Virus record (IMG/VR): IMGVR_UViG_3300032294_002470
Coordinates: 1 to 52,793 of that record
Length of the DNA: 52,793 nt
Reading direction: 5' to 3' (one strand)
From: a virus
Taxonomy: Duplodnaviria; Caudoviricetes
A program made the translations under genes and the position numbers. This document shows, in pieces, positions 3,519 to 52,793 of the stretch (its first letter is position 1; each line of letters opens with the position of its first letter). The notes below the pieces were generated by a model. The model was not told the DNA's origin and made no database searches. It worked only from the letters and a program-made list of their open reading frames with translations.

Positions 3519-3661
3519 GCTATTGTAAGGACGACAGTTTTGTAACCAACATTCAAACCAATATTCGGTAGTTTCTCAACAAACTCCTCGTAGCTTCTAA
3601 CTACGATCCAGCTCTTATCGATTGGGGTCCTAATGTCGTCTAAGTATATTTTATGCTTCAT
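3503..3661 (-). pseudogene. Truncated cyclic-phosphate-processing receiver-like gene running into the array edge
   Basis: MKHKIYLDDIRTPIDKSWIVVRSYEEFVEK..., lacks the downstream DHDLG part and stops inside site 10. Confidence 0.5.
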
Positions 3662-4724
3662 TCAGTAAAAATTTATTTGAAATTACCTTGAACGAAATTT
3701 TTCGATCAAGACTTCTGATGACAACGCCCTCCCTATCAAAATTTGGATTAAGACTTGATTTTGAATCAGCGTACTCGAGTAATTGATCTATTGTATCAGG
3801 CAGAGCGAATTTGGTTTCAACTATTGGAACAATTGGTAAACCAAATCCCAAGACTAGTTTAGTAAACTCTTCAAATCCCAAGTATTCTTGAGTGTCGATA
3901 TTAAAAGCATTAAAGAACTTCACAGTCTGTCCTCTTAATTTATAAGGGTTCTTTTGAATTCCCTCGCCTACCAATTCTCCTTGAATGCAAATATTATAGC
4001 CAACTGACTCTAATTTAGGCTTAATCTCCATTTCTCTAGCGACTTTCCAAAACGTATTTTCATCAGTCTCCAGCAGTTCCAAATTACGTGAACACGCTCC
4101 AAACTCTCCGTCCTTTAAGTAGAAAGTTGCGGACGAACCGTCCAATTTCTCAGTTACGTAAAAAGCCTGATCTTTCCAACTTTCATAATGGTCGGTTAAG
4201 TTCTGTACGCGTTCCTCATCAGTCTTGTGAATGAATGACGGGAACATGCCTTTAACCTTACCTGATAACTCTGCTGGAATTGGTGGTTCATACTTAAGCA
4301 CGCACATGTACTCAGTAACGTCAGTGCCTTCTTCGATAACAAGCGCGTCATCATAGGGTCCAAGCTGAAGCTGATCTCCCCAAGGCTGTTTACTGATTCC
4401 AATCTTCATTTCATCTTCCTTTTCCAGAACACTTAATGGTAAACATAGCCCTTGCGAAACCTGCCCTCTAAGCTTAATTGTTTTTAATCTGAATCCCTCT
4501 AAGTCTCCCATCTTTTTGTATGAAGACTTTCTTAGGAATTCAAAGTCCTTCTCCATCGGTAGAAACGAATCTATTTCAAAATAGACGCAGAGGTCGCCCT
4601 CTGTGAATTCACCTTTTTTTGCAACTACGTTCCAGCTATTGATCTGAACTACTTCGATTGTATCAGCTCCATCAATCGGTTTGATTGCGCGGACTCTTTG
4701 AATGCTTGCTAATTTTCTTTCCAT
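3651..4724 (-). CDS. RNA ligase, DRB0094/Rnl2-like family
   Basis: N-terminal MERKLASIQ OB-like region, motif I TEKLDGSS, QGELVG, REGVV, FKVIS. Confidence 0.9.
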   Translation of the reverse strand: MERKLASIQRVRAIKPIDGADTIEVVQINSWNVVAKKGEFTEGDLCVYFEIDSFLPMEKDFEFLRKSSYKKMGDLEGFRLKTIKLRGQVSQGLCLPLSVLEKEDEMKIGISKQPWGDQLQLGPYDDALVIEEGTDVTEYMCVLKYEPPIPAELSGKVKGMFPSFIHKTDEERVQNLTDHYESWKDQAFYVTEKLDGSSATFYLKDGEFGACSRNLELLETDENTFWKVAREMEIKPKLESVGYNICIQGELVGEGIQKNPYKLRGQTVKFFNAFNIDTQEYLGFEEFTKLVLGFGLPIVPIVETKFALPDTIDQLLEYADSKSSLNPNFDREGVVIRSLDRKISFKVISNKFLLNEA

Positions 4725-5251: not shown

Positions 5252-5989
5252 TTATTCCTCCATTGTTGGTTTCAACCAAATCTTTGTCATAAAAATGTAT
5301 TCAAATAGTGCAGGATACCTCATCAATACTCTGAGAGTTTCGGCAGTATCGTGTTTGAAACATTTAAGTAGCTCTTCCCTGATTCTCTCAGCGGATACGA
5401 CTGCCATGAAGACTTCATAATCGAAGTGCTTGATGTGCTGATGCATGTCGGCTGTGATTACAAAGCCCTTAGTGATCATGAACCTGATCGCTCTTAGGAT
5501 TCTCAAAGGATCGTCCTTGAAAGTAACCTCGCAAGGTAACGGTGTTCTAAGAACTCCATTTTGTAAATCCTCAATTCCGTTGAATGGATCAATCAGTGCT
5601 CCATCCTCGTCCTTTGCGATTGCATTGAGCGTGAAGTCACGTCTTTGTAAATCATCGAATAGAGTTCCAGGCTTCACGATCGGTGTTCTTGTAAAAGGCA
5701 AGTATCCAACCTCTTTTCTAGCCATCACGAAATCCGCAACTCCCTGGTATTTGTGACCATCTGGAAATTTAGCCCTGATCGTATAACAGTCAGCTGTCAC
5801 TAAAAAGATTTGAAACTTCTCACGAGTCAAGTAGTCAACTAGCACTTTGAAAAGGTCTTCTGCTTCCGGAAACTCTTCAATTAAAGACTCCTTGGGAACG
5901 GCAACGAAATCAACGTCCTTTGACTGCAGGCCCAAGATTTCGTCCCTGACCTTGCCTCCTACCTCGTAAAATTTAAAAAATGGTTTCAT
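5252..5989 (-). CDS. tRNA nucleotidyltransferase (CCA-adding/poly(A) polymerase family)
   Basis: VGGKVRD..KDVDF, DLQRRDFTLNA, DDPLRILRAIRF, SAERIREEL. Confidence 0.92.
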   Translation of the reverse strand: MKPFFKFYEVGGKVRDEILGLQSKDVDFVAVPKESLIEEFPEAEDLFKVLVDYLTREKFQIFLVTADCYTIRAKFPDGHKYQGVADFVMARKEVGYLPFTRTPIVKPGTLFDDLQRRDFTLNAIAKDEDGALIDPFNGIEDLQNGVLRTPLPCEVTFKDDPLRILRAIRFMITKGFVITADMHQHIKHFDYEVFMAVVSAERIREELLKCFKHDTAETLRVLMRYPALFEYIFMTKIWLKPTMEE

Positions 5990-12713: not shown

Positions 12714-13790
12714 TTAACGGTTCCAGAAAGGTTTTTGATAGTCAGGTCGAATCATTCGCCAAATGGTTTGACTGTAGTCTCTGTCATGTAACATTGAGAA
12801 TACTAGACCTTGGTATTCCTTTGGGCAATTTGCTTGAATCCACAGTGCGTCATCCTTCTTGGTATCGAGAGGTTGGCTCAACAATTCAGCAAAGATCTTT
12901 TTTGCATCAATTTCCTTCATGACGAATGCAAATTTAAGAGCCCTGATCCAGTCTCTAACCCATGCATCAAATTCATCGGGCACGCTTTCAAGATACTCGC
13001 CTAGATCATCACCGTTTCGCAAGCACTCCCAAATATCAATGTTTGAAAAATTGGTCAACAGTCGGTGTAGTCTAACGTACTCGTCGAACTTGATCTTAAC
13101 TCGGTAATTTGATGGATGGAATCGTAGGACGAAACCTTCCTTATCAGATTCATTAAGGTTCTTATATCGTTTAAAAATATTCTCAGTAATGGTATCCATC
13201 GCCGTCCAAACAATATCCTCTTCAAGGATCCCAGATGAGTGAAATAGCGCTTTAGCCGTTCCCCAATTTACTTCACGCCCTTCCATGACGGCTGACAGAA
13301 ACATAAGCTTTTCTTCCGCATAGTCAACGACTATTCTATTTTCAGGATAGATGATCTCACAAATGTAACAAACAGTTGAATGAAACTTTCCAAGATCGTA
13401 CTTCTTTTTTAGAATCGCTAGACCTGCTTTGGCTTGATCGGATTCAAAGGACCCTCTTGTGGCCATGTGCCAATCGTTATCGTAATGAAATAGGATTCCC
13501 AACGAGCCGTCCATTTTTTCTTGCACATAAACGTACTCATCATTGACCGGAATCTCTCCCTTATTCTCGACCTCCTCGTAGTTAAAGAACTTATTGAAGC
13601 CTCTAGCGACTATTCGGTTCTCATGATCAAGAATCAAACCTCGACACTGTAAGGTCACTTGATCCCAACGTTGTTCGAACTGGCACTCTCTTGAGTAATT
13701 ATAAATGGTGAGTGGAAGCTTAGGATGGTCCTTTGCTTCCACTAATCCGTTATCAACGTAAGGCTGTATGATTTCTCTAGATAAGATCAT
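12714..13790 (-). CDS. T4 Rnl1-like RNA ligase
   Basis: CRGLILD, ARGFNKFFN, EKMDGSLG, KEGFV, VKIKF; ATG at 13790 preferred. Confidence 0.9.
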   Translation of the reverse strand: MILSREIIQPYVDNGLVEAKDHPKLPLTIYNYSRECQFEQRWDQVTLQCRGLILDHENRIVARGFNKFFNYEEVENKGEIPVNDEYVYVQEKMDGSLGILFHYDNDWHMATRGSFESDQAKAGLAILKKKYDLGKFHSTVCYICEIIYPENRIVVDYAEEKLMFLSAVMEGREVNWGTAKALFHSSGILEEDIVWTAMDTITENIFKRYKNLNESDKEGFVLRFHPSNYRVKIKFDEYVRLHRLLTNFSNIDIWECLRNGDDLGEYLESVPDEFDAWVRDWIRALKFAFVMKEIDAKKIFAELLSQPLDTKKDDALWIQANCPKEYQGLVFSMLHDRDYSQTIWRMIRPDYQKPFWNR

Positions 13791-13971
13791 AGTCTTTAGT
13801 TTTTTCAATTTGATGCCACATGATTCCGTCGAAACCTTCAATCACGTAACGATTTACGATTTTATAAATGGTCATGATACCTTTAAGACTATCAAGACTT
13901 GGTGAGAACGTTATTCCATGGGAAAATCCCTTAACTTCTCGATATTGTGCCCGGTATTCTATAAAGATCAT
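13777..13971 (-). CDS. Hypothetical protein
   Basis: Operon-packed ORF. Confidence 0.6.
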   Translation of the reverse strand: MIFIEYRAQYREVKGFSHGITFSPSLDSLKGIMTIYKIVNRYVIEGFDGIMWHQIEKTKDYDLI

Positions 13972-18519: not shown

Positions 18520-18597
18520 TGGTAGGTGCACCAGGATTTGAACCTGGATCTTTTTTACTTAACGTAAAATTGCTCTAACCGCTTGAGCTATACACCT
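18520..18597 (-). tRNA. Atypical tRNA, best-pairing anticodon TTA (ochre-suppressor-like or pseudo)
   Basis: Intact acceptor, D and T arms, CCA; anticodon arm TTTTA-CGTTAAG-TAAAA with G33. Confidence 0.6.
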
Positions 18598-50448: not shown

Positions 50449-50658
50449 TACGGAGTCAATGGATCTGGGCTTGTCCATTCAGGCGTTGATAAAATAGTTA
50501 ACATTTCACTATACGTATATGGTCCTTCTGCTGTAGTTAAAGTCTGAACGAACGTTGGAATTGTGCTTCCATCCCATTTAACTAGAGTTTTTTTGGTTAT
50601 TAATTGATTTCCTTAACCATTGTTCAGATGATTGTAGTACTTTATTACGTTTGGCATT
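50449..50658 (-). pseudogene. Disrupted gene remnant
   Basis: MPNVIKYYNHLNNG* followed by protein-like TLVKWDGSTIPTFV...PEWTSPDP. Confidence 0.4.
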
Positions 50659-50660
50659 AT

Positions 50661-51212
50661 TTAGATTTCAGTGTTTTTTGGATTTGAGCCTTGAGCTGAC
50701 TCAAGGTCCTGTCTAAGCATGAAGTAGCCTAGATAGGCTTGGTCCTCCCATTCAACCGCTCTCAGCCCGTTCTTGTCCTCAAAGAGCACCACCCTAACCT
50801 CGTCCCCGTATTCTGGTGATTCAACAAAGATCTCTTCAAGCTGTCGTGAACTCTCAGGTCGACGATACTCGTCGGTGTCCGGATCGTATGCTAGTATACC
50901 AGGAAAGCGGCGGCAGAATTCACGAACTCTCGGCTCGTTCTGGTGGGTGAGAGCCAGTATGTTAAAGACCTCAACCACAGAGTCCAGCGGTAAGCTGTCC
51001 ATGAGGTCACGCTGGTCAATGAGACCAAGATCATTGATCTCTGCGACATCCGGAGGTAGTGAAACGTTAAGCATTTTACAGGTCTCAAGCGCGGCCTCTG
51101 AGTACATCTCAAGGCGGCCTTCCGCCTCGGCAAAATGGTCAGGATTGAGCAAGTCCCGTAGGGTTGCAAGTTCTGAATTATTGAATTCTTCGAATATCTT
51201 AAGGTATTTCAT
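50661..51212 (-). CDS. Putative internal virion protein
   Basis: MKYLKIFEEF; ATAAATAA upstream. Confidence 0.7.
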   Translation of the reverse strand: MKYLKIFEEFNNSELATLRDLLNPDHFAEAEGRLEMYSEAALETCKMLNVSLPPDVAEINDLGLIDQRDLMDSLPLDSVVEVFNILALTHQNEPRVREFCRRFPGILAYDPDTDEYRRPESSRQLEEIFVESPEYGDEVRVVLFEDKNGLRAVEWEDQAYLGYFMLRQDLESAQGSNPKNTEI

Positions 51213-51249
51213 AGAGTTATTTATTCGGCTGCAGCCTGACCAGTTTATC

Positions 51250-51597
51250 TTAATTCTTTACCACCTTAAATAGGGCTTTCTCGATGGAGTAGCCGTTATT
51301 AATGAAGTATTTTAAACTATCCACATTACAGTGAGCATAGATCATTTTATCCGAGTCTTTTATTTTAGAGTCTCGATAGTTCCAGAGCAGTTTGTATATG
51401 CCCTTTTGTCGATGTTCTTCTTTAACATAGGCATGGCACAGATAGATTACGGCAGGATGTTCCAAGTATGACACAATACCTACCAGTTCGTCTTTAATAA
51501 AACAGCCATAGTAGGTCGCGTATTCATCCAACAGGTCGGGTTTAATCTCAGCTAATTCTTTGTGAACCTCTCCGTATGTTATTTTCTTTATTTCCAT
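51250..51597 (-). CDS. GNAT acetyltransferase
   Basis: YVKEEHRQKGIYKLL, YFINNGY. Confidence 0.85.
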   Translation of the reverse strand: MEIKKITYGEVHKELAEIKPDLLDEYATYYGCFIKDELVGIVSYLEHPAVIYLCHAYVKEEHRQKGIYKLLWNYRDSKIKDSDKMIYAHCNVDSLKYFINNGYSIEKALFKVVKN

Positions 51598-51616
51598 GTT
51601 CTATTTTATTTTTAGG

Positions 51617-51724
51617 AGTCAGGACAGGATTCGAACCTATGCGTAGTTTTCAAATTAGGCGTTCATCTCTTTTACATCAAAGCTTGGAGACGGCTTACTT
51701 GGTAGTACCATTTACCACCTGACT
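51617..51724 (-). repeat. tRNA-like repeat copy 1 (degenerate)
   Basis: AGTCAGGTGG...AGGTTCGAATCCTGTCCTGACT. Confidence 0.7.
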
Positions 51725-51732
51725 ATTTTTTA

Positions 51733-51924
51733 TTACTCTTTTTTTATTCCACTCAAAGTTAGAAGTTCATCTTTATCCAAATGATTATAACATTCTACAA
51801 CATTTTCTAAAGTGTAGAGATGTTTACCCGTTTCTTTAAAGAACTTATCTTCTAATGTGTTTTGTTGATGCCATGTAAGATTATCCCACTAAGCCTCAAT
51901 TTTATTTTCTATTTCTGTAGCCAT
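51733..51924 (-). pseudogene. Small ORF with in-frame TAG
   Basis: MATEIENKIEA*WDNLTWHQQ...GIKKE*; TAG at 51889-51891. Confidence 0.55.
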
Positions 51925-51938
51925 ATTTATATTTTTAG

Positions 51939-51964
51939 TAGTCAGGACAGGAATCGAACCTGTA
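51939..51964 (-). repeat. tRNA-like repeat copy 2 (3' half only)
   Basis: TACAGGTTCGATTCCTGTCCTGACTA without 5' half. Confidence 0.7.
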
Positions 51965-52004
51965 AATAGTTAGTAATTCTTGTGCTGTTGGTAATTTTTC
52001 CATC

Positions 52005-52187
52005 TTATTTCTTTTTACATTTACAATCTGGATTATGTATTCCCCACGTAGCTCTTTCTTTGTTAAACTCTATATACTGATGCCCTCTAAATTCAAATTC
52101 AATAAGCTCTGCACCGTTAACAACAACTGGTTCTTTAACTTCAGTACATGATGCAAGAACAAGTAAAATTACTATTAATTTTTTCAT
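52005..52187 (-). CDS. Small lipoprotein
   Basis: LASC lipobox, HNPDCKC. Confidence 0.75.
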   Translation of the reverse strand: MKKLIVILLVLASCTEVKEPVVVNGAELIEFEFRGHQYIEFNKERATWGIHNPDCKCKKK

Positions 52188-52198
52188 CTTTATAGTTT

Positions 52199-52303
52199 TT
52201 ATTTCTTTTTACCAAGACGTTTATCAAGTTCTTCTATTTCTTCTTGAGGCATTGCCCAAGCAAATCCAATTGCAATTACACTAAACATAATCAATACTTC
52301 CAT
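52199..52303 (-). CDS. Small membrane peptide (34 aa)
   Basis: MEVLIMFSVIAIGFAWAMPQEEIEELDKRLGKKK*. Confidence 0.5.
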   Translation of the reverse strand: MEVLIMFSVIAIGFAWAMPQEEIEELDKRLGKKK

Positions 52304-52320
52304 AATTTAATTTTAATTAG

Positions 52321-52448
52321 TAGTCAGGACAGGATTCGAACCTGTATTTAATCTGTTTCGTTAGTGCTTTTGCAGAATAACTATTCTGATTAATCCCCAC
52401 CTTTCGGCTGTTATTTGGGTAGCGTCTACCAATTCCGCCACCTGACTA
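52321..52448 (-). repeat. tRNA-like repeat copy 3
   Basis: TAGTCAGGTGGCGGAATTGGTAGACGCT-variable-TACAGGTTCGAATCCTGTCCTGACTA. Confidence 0.8.
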
Positions 52449-52451
52449 TAT

Positions 52452-52649
52452 TTAATAATCACCACTTTGTTTCAAAACAATAATACCGTTTGAAATTTCT
52501 TTTTCGGTAATTGAAAGTTCTTCGTCTGGTAAACCCATATCATATAAAGATTGTCCGATTATATCCTCAGCGTTTTCTAAATTATCAGAAACCACTATTA
52601 CACAACTACCTATGTAGTGTCCTTTACCTTCGTGAATGTAGATTTTCAT
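52452..52649 (-). CDS. Hypothetical protein
   Basis: 65 aa ORF between repeats. Confidence 0.75.
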   Translation of the reverse strand: MKIYIHEGKGHYIGSCVIVVSDNLENAEDIIGQSLYDMGLPDEELSITEKEISNGIIVLKQSGDY

Positions 52650-52672
52650 AACTTTTAATTTTTAATTTTAAG

Positions 52673-52768
52673 TAGTCAGGACAGGAATCGAACCTGTAAT
52701 ACCAACCAGTAACTCCTTTGGTCATCGTTGGACTTACGTATAGCGTCTACCGTTTCGCCACCTGACTA
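52673..52768 (-). repeat. tRNA-like repeat copy 4
   Basis: TAGTCAGGTGGCGAAACGGTAGACGCT-variable-TACAGGTTCGATTCCTGTCCTGACTA. Confidence 0.8.
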
Positions 52769-52793
52769 TAGAGGCTAATATACCCAGACCCGC

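Follow-up and report, generated by a model that had tools for sequence, protein, structure and literature searches.

On the minus strand of IMGVR_UViG_3300032294_002470, a record from a T4-like lake phage whose whole analysed stretch of 52,793 nucleotides is called here the window, there are three full tRNA-shaped elements and one 3′ half. The pattern of the 3′ shell, GGTTCGAWTCCTGTCCTGACT, had four matches with no mismatches, all on the minus strand (51617-51637, 51940-51960, 52322-52342, and 52674-52694), and none in the dinucleotide-shuffled window. The 5′ shell, AGTCAGGTGGYRRA, was matched three times (51711-51724, 52434-52447, and 52754-52767) with 0.05 matches expected; therefore, three copies are full and one is a 3′ half. 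The acceptor stem AGTCAGG/CCTGACT and a canonical T arm were common to the copies, the full ones having in addition a Leu-type D arm, and the centres of the three full copies showed no mutual similarity at E ≤ 1e-3. This agrees with what an earlier reading of the letters (the sequence-only reading) had described, that is, four tRNA-like copies, one of them halved, with a shared shell and unrelated centres.

Copy 4, the right-most (52672-52767, minus strand), runs 94 nt from A1 at 52767 to U72 at 52674, followed by the trailer A73 C74 at 52673-52672, and its centre of 45 nt forms a single long irregular hairpin. Copy 3 (52320-52447, minus strand) measures 126 nt from A1 (52447) to U72 (52322), with the trailing AC at 52321-52320; its 75 nt centre folds into two hairpins, one of them with a GAAA loop. 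Copy 1 (51617-51724, minus strand), identified by matches to both shell patterns, is 108 nt long. The lengths of 108, 128, and 96 nt proposed before are thus right for copy 1, and for copies 3 and 4 they hold when the trailing AC is counted (128 and 96 nt). Copy 1 has an atypical D arm, in which the GG is still present, one G-U pair in the T stem, and a C as discriminator, and it may be a decaying element. The half copy (51940-51963, minus strand, 24 nt, detected with GGTTCGAWTCCTGTCCTGACT) consists of the T arm and the 3′ acceptor strand followed by AC, and the scan of the window with AGTCAGGTGGYRRA found no 5′ shell upstream of it. We consider it most likely a recombination scar; its likening to an att duplication was left unsupported, as no integrase (PF00589) was matched in the window, which as a fragment represents an estimated 20% of a genome, and a scar fits equally well.

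The motif GGTATATT, which had been called promoter-like, is indeed located upstream of the right-most copy (52781-52774), but did not score as a promoter of sigma-70 type: the scan of 50500-52793 gave one promoter-like site against 5.9 in shuffles. In the same region one terminator-like site was detected, which is a T arm, against 1.4 in shuffles. A PeSL (promoter-early stem-loop) cassette was rejected given that promoter and terminator signals in the array were not above chance. The tRNA cluster of the window lies about 28 kb away from the array, and among the 21 ordinary tRNAs of the window tRNA-Leu is absent.

The alternation of the copies with ORFs of 34-65 aa was also confirmed, all of them on the minus strand. 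The 65-aa ORF (52452-52649) has its ATG 24 nt past copy 4 and its stop 4 nt ahead of copy 3; the 34-aa hydrophobic ORF (52199-52303) starts 18 nt past copy 3 and is followed by a 60-aa ORF (52005-52187), whose N-terminus looks by eye like a lipoprotein signal. No family in Pfam or PHROG was found for the 65-aa and 60-aa products. In the RNA-library run X20 there was a 151-nt contig, with a depth of 3.5, identical to 51987-52137, in the region of the 60-aa ORF. Between the half copy and copy 1 lies a 62-codon frame (51733-51924, minus strand) with an in-frame TAG at codon 12 (51891-51889), which is either a broken gene or a gene needing read-through, and had no homolog among the family loci compared. 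Global recoding of TAG was rejected because 9 of the 56 long ORFs end in TAG. Past copy 1, a 115-aa GNAT-type acetyltransferase (51250-51597, minus strand; PF00583, E 1.4e-6) starts 19 nt away. The spacings between element and ORF in the window were 4-8 nt and 15-24 nt, and in the family as a whole an ATG was present within 80 nt downstream in 115 of 201 elements (median 22 nt) and a stop within 45 nt upstream in 89 (median 8 nt), the ORFs beside the elements having a median length of 61-65 aa. The window also encodes two RNA ligases and, at 5546-5968, a PF01743 nucleotidyltransferase (CCA-adding family; a protein of 245 aa), which was found in one of five other element-bearing genomes. Partner proteins were searched for among 148 neighbouring ORF clusters, sampled from the 479 clusters formed by 545 ORFs; each Pfam family was found in at most 4 of the 148, and no homing-endonuclease or recombinase family was prominent. 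An integron attC array was rejected, with no PF00589 in the window and none among the top families of the sampled clusters.

What the elements keep is the top half of a tRNA: the 7-bp acceptor stem, the D arm, whose GG docks on the T loop, the T arm with a TTCGAAT-type loop, discriminator A, and a C next to it. The Rfam tRNA model RF00005 scored copy 3 with 38.4 bits and copy 4 with 37.0 bits through the acceptor, D, and T arms only, and in the alignments 17-18 positions of the anticodon arm were replaced by unaligned inserts of 71 nt (copy 3) and 40 nt (copy 4). Measured by what defines this model, the acceptor stem of 7 bp, the D arm with GG, and the T arm were there, and the 5-bp anticodon stem with its 7-nt loop was not found in copies 3 and 4. 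Two of the three full copies were called by Rfam, as plain tRNA, and one by ARAGORN (copy 4, as Asp(gtc)), which is a forced fit. With introns allowed, ARAGORN called 118 of 176 elements, with anticodons across all amino acids, including unnatural ones. Some short members resemble real tRNAs, such as a Lys(ttt) with 66.3 bits in L050. Intron-bearing tRNAs, with a group I intron in the anticodon loop or a bulge-helix-bulge intron at 37/38, were rejected, since the insertion points ranged over positions 29-42, the anticodons were scattered, and Rfam found no intron family. tmRNA was likewise rejected, neither ARAGORN nor Rfam having found any in the window.

That the shell pairs as RNA is shown by the compensatory substitutions of its acceptor, D, and T stems and of the first stem of the centre. 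In a sub-family of 13 sequences, both sides changed in 8 of 23 pairs, against 1.9 in shuffles (0 of 500 reached 8), and 97.7% of the cells were paired; slid controls gave 0-2. The same centre was found with fully swapped acceptor stems (ACCAAAG/CTTTGGT in L149 and L151) and, around one centre, there was a second swap (AACAGAG/CTCTGTT in L191 and L194), while L162 had one swapped T-stem pair and 5′ shell variants retained pairing via G-U. The D arm is like that of phage tRNA-Leu genes. The position after the shell was A in 92% and the following one C in 98%; in 284 ordinary tRNAs of the same loci, C74 was present in 99%, and position 75 was A or T in 92% and C in 2%. By this comparison the 3′ trailer (A73, C74, then A or T) is shown to match that of the genuine tRNAs in these phages.

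Beyond the window, the exact 3′ 21-mer was present in at least 120 IMG/VR contigs and in 23 contigs of the genome collection, almost all of them MAGs. The family sample comprised 194 matches, 182 with the full shell, of which 176 were distinct and 53-181 nt long; the invariance of the 3′ half in this sample is by construction, because the search pattern fixed it. Shells were near-identical in at least 140 contigs. Isolated 3′ halves are rare: 6 of the 194 matches had no 5′ half, and clean halves were seen by eye only in the window and in L071. Oversize (95 nt or more) is specific to this shell, as it was observed in 110 of 179 tRNA-shaped candidates with the acceptor CCTGACT and in 14 of 213 with other acceptors from the same 1.27 Mb. 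In L015, L021, and L146, members stand among ordinary tRNAs, and the phages that carry the family are dissimilar and differ in base composition, with T4-like surroundings in the window and a structural-gene cluster in L023. In five large genomes the 20 copies were all on one strand. When the array was compared by blastn with 50,697 GenBank phage records, T4 included, there was no match to shell or centre; the sole related match was a weak one to the D arm of a tRNA-Leu (E 0.4). Mimicry of host tRNAs was rejected, as none of the 23 genome-collection matches was an ordinary tRNA with this 3′ end; the one match in an isolate genome (Hymenobacter, L135) was a 3′ fragment not called by ARAGORN. Full-text searches of the published literature turned up no account of this shell family.

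Hundreds of unrelated inserts of about 20-130 nt replace the anticodon and variable arms, 139 of 176 centres being unlike any other. The centre of copy 3 was nearly invariant in 13 IMG/VR contigs with 7 flank contexts (the window counted), two of which contigs had a different acceptor stem around it. Orthologs of the copy 4 centre occurred in 6 IMG/VR contigs, where the usual form of the element has 109 nt, the window copy missing 15 nt between two GATGACC repeats. For the copy 1 centre no relative was found in IMG/VR, and its only match in JGI metagenome contigs, in an unrelated GC-rich contig, was dismissed as chance. Six pairs had the same allele and alignable flanks, and in five of them conservation of the centre equalled or exceeded that of both flanks; the exception is L015/L042, in which the centre diverges more than the flanks. 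Such conservation across contexts could reflect recent spread instead of selection. By a small margin only, the centres were thermodynamically more stable than segments taken at random from these loci (mean z −0.56 versus −0.21). Searches of the array with Rfam at E ≤ 1, and of 18 loci (128,586 bases) at the gathering score, returned RF00005 only. Regarding capture from other DNA, in 1.4 Mb of loci the matches listed (60 of 66, inspected by eye) were to other elements only, and as for antisense targets, perfect complements of the window centres to the sense strand of the window reached at most 9-11 nt, no better than with shuffled centres.

The suggestion that the repeats act as recombination anchors was borne out by comparison of related contigs. 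Seven contigs with flanks about 90% identical (L023, L092, L085, L099, L031, L065, and L120) carried five unrelated centres inside the same shell; the upstream 49-aa ORF was 98-100% identical, the downstream ORF 80-93% identical in the three pairs scored, and one of the contigs had an extra spacer-plus-element inserted at the 3′ end of the shell. Exchange of ORFs at the repeat boundaries was also visible: L037 and L061 share an upstream ORF (99% identical) and differ in their centres, L061 and L087 have an identical element behind upstream ORFs that are 39% identical, and in L050 a 31-aa homolog of the 34-aa ORF of the window (36.7% identity over 30 aa) immediately follows a shell that holds another centre. 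In another sample (X2 record 12), 202 other bases stand in place of window positions 51610-51934, that is, copy 1 and the 62-codon frame. Between the window and L060 or L078 the homology is limited to the element and the flanks are unrelated. These comparisons show that phages trade inserts and adjoining small ORFs, that the breakpoints fall within the shell or at its edge, and that the shell acts as an anchor for recombination. The locus behaves as a fast-swapping accessory locus.

Taking these results into account, the array probably belongs, as a local cluster, to a large family of tRNA-Leu-derived RNA genes in phages, with the top half kept and the centre as the payload. The elements would be transcribed together with the surrounding small ORFs and excised by the tRNA-maturation machinery, with RNase P cutting at A1, followed by 3′ trimming and CCA completion, beside which the PF01743 nucleotidyltransferase of the phage is to be noted. 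Excision would yield stable L-shaped RNAs carrying the insert as a functional payload; incidentally, it would also part the small mRNAs on either side from one another. The idea that the elements are scaffolds for variable RNA inserts holds in form, with centres conserved across unrelated flanks and compensatory changes in the stems. A role as RNase P/Z punctuation, which had been proposed too, would be compatible with the trailer signature that the elements have in common with real tRNAs. Regarding expression, an RNA-library contig with a depth of 676 contained a family member with a different centre of 69 nt, although contigs assembled from such a library may also derive from contaminating DNA. 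Both RNA contigs over the 3′ half of the shell stop at C74 or one base further, which is a weak hint, as assembled contigs from one library cannot show ends.

As a leading but tentative guess, the payload might bind or decoy host factors that handle tRNA, for example, the tRNA-cleaving nucleases of defence systems. Charging by E. coli LeuRS depends on A73 and on tertiary elements of the D and T loops, not on the anticodon. We offer only tentatively, and as rather doubtful, the wider proposal that phages of lake bacteria keep a natural tRNA-scaffold display, with a Leu chassis that provides processing, stability, and perhaps charging, and hundreds of structured RNA payloads that replace the anticodon and variable arms and are traded among unrelated phages via the shells, as an arsenal against tRNA-directed immunity or for host takeover.

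If the shells were pure punctuation, they would only be signals for RNase P and 3′ processing by which a polycistronic transcript is divided into small mRNAs or the ends of these are protected, and the centres would be neutral filler shuffled through recombination. Tight packing with co-oriented small ORFs, both in the window and across the 201 elements, fits this, as do the weak structure of the centres and the uniqueness of 139 of the 176. Filler is expected to drift, however, and the centre of copy 3 stayed nearly invariant in 7 contexts, the first stem of the centre has compensatory changes, and centres matched or exceeded both flanks in conservation in 5 of 6 pairs. Moreover, a shell of 53-70 nt is enough for processing, yet most elements reach at least 95 nt, and many stand among ordinary tRNAs instead of ahead of ORFs. 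We regard this explanation as unlikely. tRNA punctuation in mitochondria and the t-elements of plant mitochondria, where tRNA-like structures between frames are cleavage marks for RNase P/Z, are organellar and do not combine a conserved shell with a hypervariable interior, whereas the elements are phage-borne.

Decidedly unlikely is that they are selfish mini-elements in the shape of a tRNA, spread among co-infecting phages via shell homology, and perhaps by homing endonucleases, with the centre hitch-hiking and no benefit to the phage. Homology of the window with L060 and L078 does stop at the element edges, the phages that bear elements differ greatly in type and base composition, and in L021 an ORF that by eye looks like GIY-YIG is surrounded by tRNAs and shells; SegB is documented to drive rearrangement in the tRNA regions of T-even phages (PMC13096335). 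Against it, no homing-endonuclease or recombinase family stood out in the 148 sampled clusters, the window has no integrase, and spread at the DNA level needs neither RNA pairing nor a tRNA-type trailer.

The elements might instead be working decoder tRNAs, for Leu or another amino acid, with an intron or an exotic anticodon arm, spliced or used directly, a possibility to which the lack of tRNA-Leu among the 21 ordinary tRNAs, the Leu-like D arm and discriminator A, the few short members that are real-tRNA-like (Lys(ttt) in L050), and the two RNA ligases all lend something. We hold it to be quite improbable considering that the ARAGORN anticodons are scattered and its "intron" positions spread over 29-42, that Rfam returned neither a group I intron nor a further family for 18 loci and the window array, and that syntenic alleles would then differ in amino-acid identity. 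Centres of 20-130 nt are, besides, too short for group I introns.

DNA-only recombination sites, like attC or PeSL and free of any RNA role, would explain cassette swaps bounded by shells and a half copy at a junction; they would not explain acceptor, D, and T helices kept by compensatory changes, 5′ variants that still pair through G-U, a trailer equal to that of real tRNAs, 20 of 20 copies on one strand in five large genomes, or a window without integrase, and we consider them very improbable. That the copies are decaying duplicates of one tRNA-Leu gene, with the alignable centres and fixed gene order that this would bring, is barely credible and already contradicted for copies 3 and 4: copy 1, which lacks relatives and has an unusual D arm and C as discriminator, and the in-frame stop in the adjoining ORF would suit it, but the centres are unalignable while shells are near-identical in at least 140 contigs, and centres are conserved across contexts.

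For the reading we prefer, a family of tRNA-Leu-derived RNA genes with an exchangeable payload, the closest known relative in form is species 1 RNA of phage T4. The small stable RNAs of species 1 (rnaC) and species 2 (rnaD), whose genes close the T4 tRNA cluster, are phage-encoded and associated with tRNAs, as the elements are. Like the elements, rnaC lacks an anticodon and has a canonical T arm, behind which a 3′ strand is paired with the 5′ end; long hairpins occupy the places of its D and anticodon arms. Blastn found no sequence homology between them, the T-loop consensus alone being shared by eye, and rnaC is without the complete 7-bp acceptor stem and the Leu-type D arm of the elements. 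Furthermore, rnaC is a single fixed gene, whereas the elements are a family with interchangeable centres. To our knowledge, the role of species 1 RNA is still unknown. tmRNA also keeps acceptor stem and T arm and has the anticodon arm replaced by another RNA domain; the elements have much shorter inserts, showed neither a tag reading frame nor a pseudoknot ring, possess an intact, Leu-like D arm, and lack the alanine identity pair G3-U70. In engineered tRNA scaffolds a foreign RNA to be expressed takes the place of the anticodon arm, while processing and stability come from the top half; these are laboratory constructs of the same design, of which the elements would be the natural counterpart. 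A tRNA-Spinach fusion is one example of them (PMC5397188).

The PeSLs of T4-type phages (PMC2839356) are a promoter and a terminator hairpin flanking small non-essential ORFs in hyperplastic regions, and recombination between them shuffles modules among phages. Short conserved noncoding units, small ORFs, and module shuffling are thus common to both, but the repeated unit here is a tRNA-shaped RNA gene with a variable interior, not a promoter plus terminator. The tRNA-rich region of phages has been described as an anti-defence locus rearranged by recombination, and phage tRNAs altered in their variable loop or in the region of the anticodon as resisting, or competing with, host nucleases (PMC13096335; PMC11555353). 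Such tRNAs decode, replacing the cleaved host tRNA, whereas most elements have no anticodon loop. A catalogue of structured RNAs from IMG/VR lists, in its available part, five tRNA-like candidates, one of which overlaps an ARAGORN tRNA-Asp in 1 of 27 places (PMC10690425). Single sub-families may already be included in it, because copy 4 is also called tRNA-Asp by ARAGORN, but that part describes no shared shell, variable centre, or swapping.

If they are processed and stable, the elements would be a class of phage small RNAs both abundant and very diverse, which standard tRNA finders miss or mislabel. The family is a natural test of which parts of a tRNA are needed for maturation, supplies ready-made hundreds of natural inserts that a tRNA scaffold tolerates, and gives a new example of the movement of small modules between phage genomes, and it may shed light on the role of T4 species 1 RNA. 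In lake metagenomes, shell depth reached 2671, compared with about 20-30 for the body of the window phage. A 27-mer at the window end, used to search for continuation of the array, had no metagenome match. Positions 52470-52579 were without coverage by any contig of four sequencing runs, from which nothing was inferred, and a contig of 6,597 nt from run X1 runs on past the end of the window.

The right end of the window carries an array of elements on the minus strand, which is also the strand of the tRNA genes. Each element consists of a shell, the top half of a tRNA (acceptor stem AGTCAGG/CCTGACT, a Leu-type D arm and a T arm), and a centre, the insert that replaces the anticodon and variable arms. 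The 3′ shell pattern matched the window four times with no mismatches and shuffled windows not at all; the 5′ shell matched three times, against 0.05 in shuffled windows. From right to left, these are copy 4 (52767-52674, 94 nt), copy 3 (52447-52322, 126 nt), a 3′ half copy (51963-51940, 24 nt) and copy 1 (51724-51617, 108 nt). The sequence-only reading, which saw a tRNA-like array with variable centres and tiny ORFs, was correct: three of the elements are complete, the fourth is a 3′ half, and the centres are mutually unrelated. Copies 3 and 4 were aligned by the Rfam tRNA model via the acceptor, D and T arms, and the model skipped 71 and 40 nt, respectively, in place of the 17-18 positions of the anticodon arm. 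Small ORFs are packed between the shells, with the stop codon 4-8 nt upstream of a shell and the ATG 15-24 nt downstream. At codon 12, the small frame that separates the half copy from copy 1 (51924-51733, minus strand) is interrupted by an in-frame TAG (51891-51889). This frame has no alternative start and no homolog among the fetched loci; either the gene is broken or its TAG is read through by the suppressor tRNA at 18520-18597. A gene for a 115-aa GNAT acetyltransferase (51250-51597, minus strand) begins 19 nt past copy 1, and its homolog in the fetched locus L036 has no adjoining shell. Charged tRNAs are acetylated by some GNAT toxins.

The elements belong to a widespread family. Used as a probe, the exact 21-mer formed by the T arm and the 3′ acceptor strand matched at least 120 contigs of IMG/VR. 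The genome collection contributed another 23, almost exclusively from MAGs and many binned as Bacteroidota, and none of these 23 held an ordinary tRNA with this 3′ end. The array had no shell or centre match among cultured phages in GenBank. The sole match in a cultured genome, on a Hymenobacter montanus isolate contig (L135, 6860-6880), consists of a 3′ shell fragment that follows a degenerate, tRNA-like stretch without an ARAGORN call, and it may be an integration scar. The window and the loci fetched from the matches listed gave 194 hits, of which 182 had the 5′ shell at most 260 nt away, 6 had none within that distance and 6 were themselves at a locus edge. The same matches listed yielded 176 distinct full elements, whose length varied continuously from 53 to 181 nt. 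A length of at least 95 nt was reached by 110 of the 179 tRNA-shaped candidates with this acceptor versus only 14 of the 213 with other acceptors over the same 1.27 Mb, several of the latter 14 being shell variants whose acceptor stem has changed in a paired manner. In five large phage genomes (174-271 kb) the copies numbered 1-8 per genome, with 20 of 20 copies on the same strand. In lake metagenomes, the summed contig depth of the shell halves was up to 2671 versus about 20-30 for the phage body.

The shell is a tRNA-type RNA structure. Its pairing was analysed in a sub-family gathered with a centre-specific 17-mer, for which 25 of 45 matches were elements (15 distinct sequences) and the rest chance matches to coding DNA. 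Two sequences with large D-loop insertions were excluded, and in the alignment of the other 13 both sides had changed in 8 of the 23 cloverleaf pairs, versus 1.9 in shuffles, none of 500 reaching 8. In this alignment 97.7% of the cells were paired, and slid controls gave 0-2 pairs changed on both sides. A common centre was also seen inside wholly different, still complementary acceptor stems (contigs L149/L151 and L191/L194), and one T-stem pair was swapped in L162. The D arm is similar to those of tRNA-Leu genes in the same phages, and the acceptor of one of these genes, ACTCAGG/CCTGAGT, is nearly identical to that of the shell. A few short family members resemble working tRNAs, for example Lys(ttt), with 66.3 bits. 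Some members hold a second large insertion between GGAA and GGTAGACGC (L031 484-642, L176 3152-3288, L179 168-293, L080 and L124), making the D loop another site that tolerates inserts.

Immediately past the shell come an A (92%) and then a C (98%). In the 284 ordinary tRNAs with a placeable acceptor stem, taken from 203 fetched loci, C74 is present in 99%; position 75 is occupied by A/T in 92% but by C in only 2%, and 70% have A at position 76. Since the trailer of the shell matches this unusual trailer, the elements bear the 3′ signature of genes matured as tRNAs by these phages. The partial-CCA ending of the ordinary tRNAs, N73-C74-(A/T)75-A76, suggests a particular route of 3′-end maturation. 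At the RNA level, the evidence comes from assembled contigs of the one RNA library with related sequence. A contig of 1,085 nt (depth 676) has a family member with a different, 69-nt centre, and another of 151 nt (depth 3.5) is identical to the 60-aa ORF of the window. Both of the two RNA contigs covering the 3′ half of a shell stop at C74 or one base past it, a weak hint of a 3′ end near C74.

Seven contigs (L023, L092, L085, L099, L031, L065 and L120) have common flanking genes, with an upstream 49-aa ORF 98-100% identical, a downstream ORF 80-93% identical (three pairs scored) and flanking DNA 84-91% identical (two pairs measured). Their same shell holds five unrelated centres, of 116/118, 89, 159, 109 and 96 nt, and the D arm also differs; identity ends just past AGTCAGGT and resumes at the T arm. 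In L085 there is also an insertion ahead of the common downstream flank, made up of a spacer of 56 nt and a further element that has the same shell and resembles tRNA-Ile. L037 and L061 have different centres and upstream ORFs 99% identical, and L061 and L087 have an identical element and upstream ORFs only 39% identical. A contig from another sample matches the window at 51539-51609, continues with 202 foreign bases and then matches 51935-52209; therefore, copy 1 and the TAG-interrupted frame are replaced there. In L050, a homolog of the 34-aa ORF of the window lies behind a shell with a different centre. Taking into account these swaps, the shell acts as a portable homology for the exchange of centres and neighbouring ORFs, as PeSL (promoter-early stem-loop) cassettes do for module exchange in T4-type phages (PMC2839356). 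For the half copy, the best reading is a scar left by shell-mediated exchange. An ORF with a GIY-YIG-like motif, recognised by eye amid tRNAs and shells in L021 (4408-5085, plus strand), recalls segB of the T4 tRNA cluster.

Most centres (139 of 176) are unlike any other in the sample, and the other 37 form 16 small groups; in the window array and in 18 loci, Rfam found no RNA family other than tRNA. Centres as introns were rejected: with introns allowed, ARAGORN called 118 of the 176 elements, with anticodons across the whole code and "intron" sites from 29 to 42. The stability of the centres is slightly above that of random segments (mean z −0.56 versus −0.21, p ~1e-4), and constraining the shell gave a fold of four branches (D arm, two hairpins in the centre and T arm) for 62 of 153 elements, versus 28 of 153 when the centres were shuffled. 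For those centres that have relatives, the centre behaves like a sequence under selection. In 13 contigs with 7 different flank contexts, window included, the copy-3 centre hardly varies, and the homology that L060 or L078 has with the window does not extend beyond the element. Conservation of the centre equalled or exceeded that of both flanks in five of six same-allele pairs with alignable flanks and was lower in the sixth, L015/L042. In this last pair, with a 115-nt element, the flanks are 99-100% identical and the centre has 3 differences, each an A in one contig and a G in the other. Copy 4 differs by a 15-nt deletion from a 109-nt form present in 6 contigs, and the centre of copy 1 had no relatives in IMG/VR or JGI metagenome contigs.

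Considering that the shell keeps the tRNA parts recognised by RNase P, the 3′-end enzymes and CCA addition, and that the variable part is the one these ignore, we read the elements as tRNA-Leu-derived RNA genes, in which the shell would secure tRNA-type maturation and doubles as a recombination anchor, and the centre would be the payload it carries. Since processing of the elements would also separate the flanking small mRNAs, punctuation of these mRNAs is likely a side effect and not the whole story. The window contained no antisense target of its centres, and none of the protein families in the 148 neighbouring ORF clusters sampled stood out as a partner. The most attractive guess is that the payload would be a decoy or a binder, because the tRNA regions of phages are known to serve in anti-defence and the variable loops of class II tRNAs are known targets of host nucleases (PMC13096335). 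Full-text searching found no description of the family in the literature; single sub-families may be among the five tRNA-like motifs of a 2023 catalogue of IMG/VR structured-RNA candidates (PMC10690425). The closest known RNA in form is T4 species 1 RNA.

The window, a complete IMG/VR record, is a linear fragment estimated at 20% of a genome. The phage is T4-type, with genes for the two topoisomerase II subunits and for two RNA ligases; no integrase was found in the window. It also encodes a short nucleotidyltransferase of the CCA-adding family (245 aa, 5252-5989), present in only one of five other element-bearing genomes, which adjoins the Rnl2-type RNA ligase (3651-4724). Together with the Rnl1-type ligase further on (12714-13841), all on the minus strand, they form a tRNA repair/maturation gene set. 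The 21 ordinary tRNA genes (15.8-23.8 kb) are all on the minus strand. One tRNA of this main cluster (18520-18597, minus strand; ARAGORN, Rfam 50.3 bits) is a suppressor: its anticodon, TTA, pairs with the stop codon TAA and, by wobble, with TAG, yet 40 of the 56 long ORFs of the window end in TAA.
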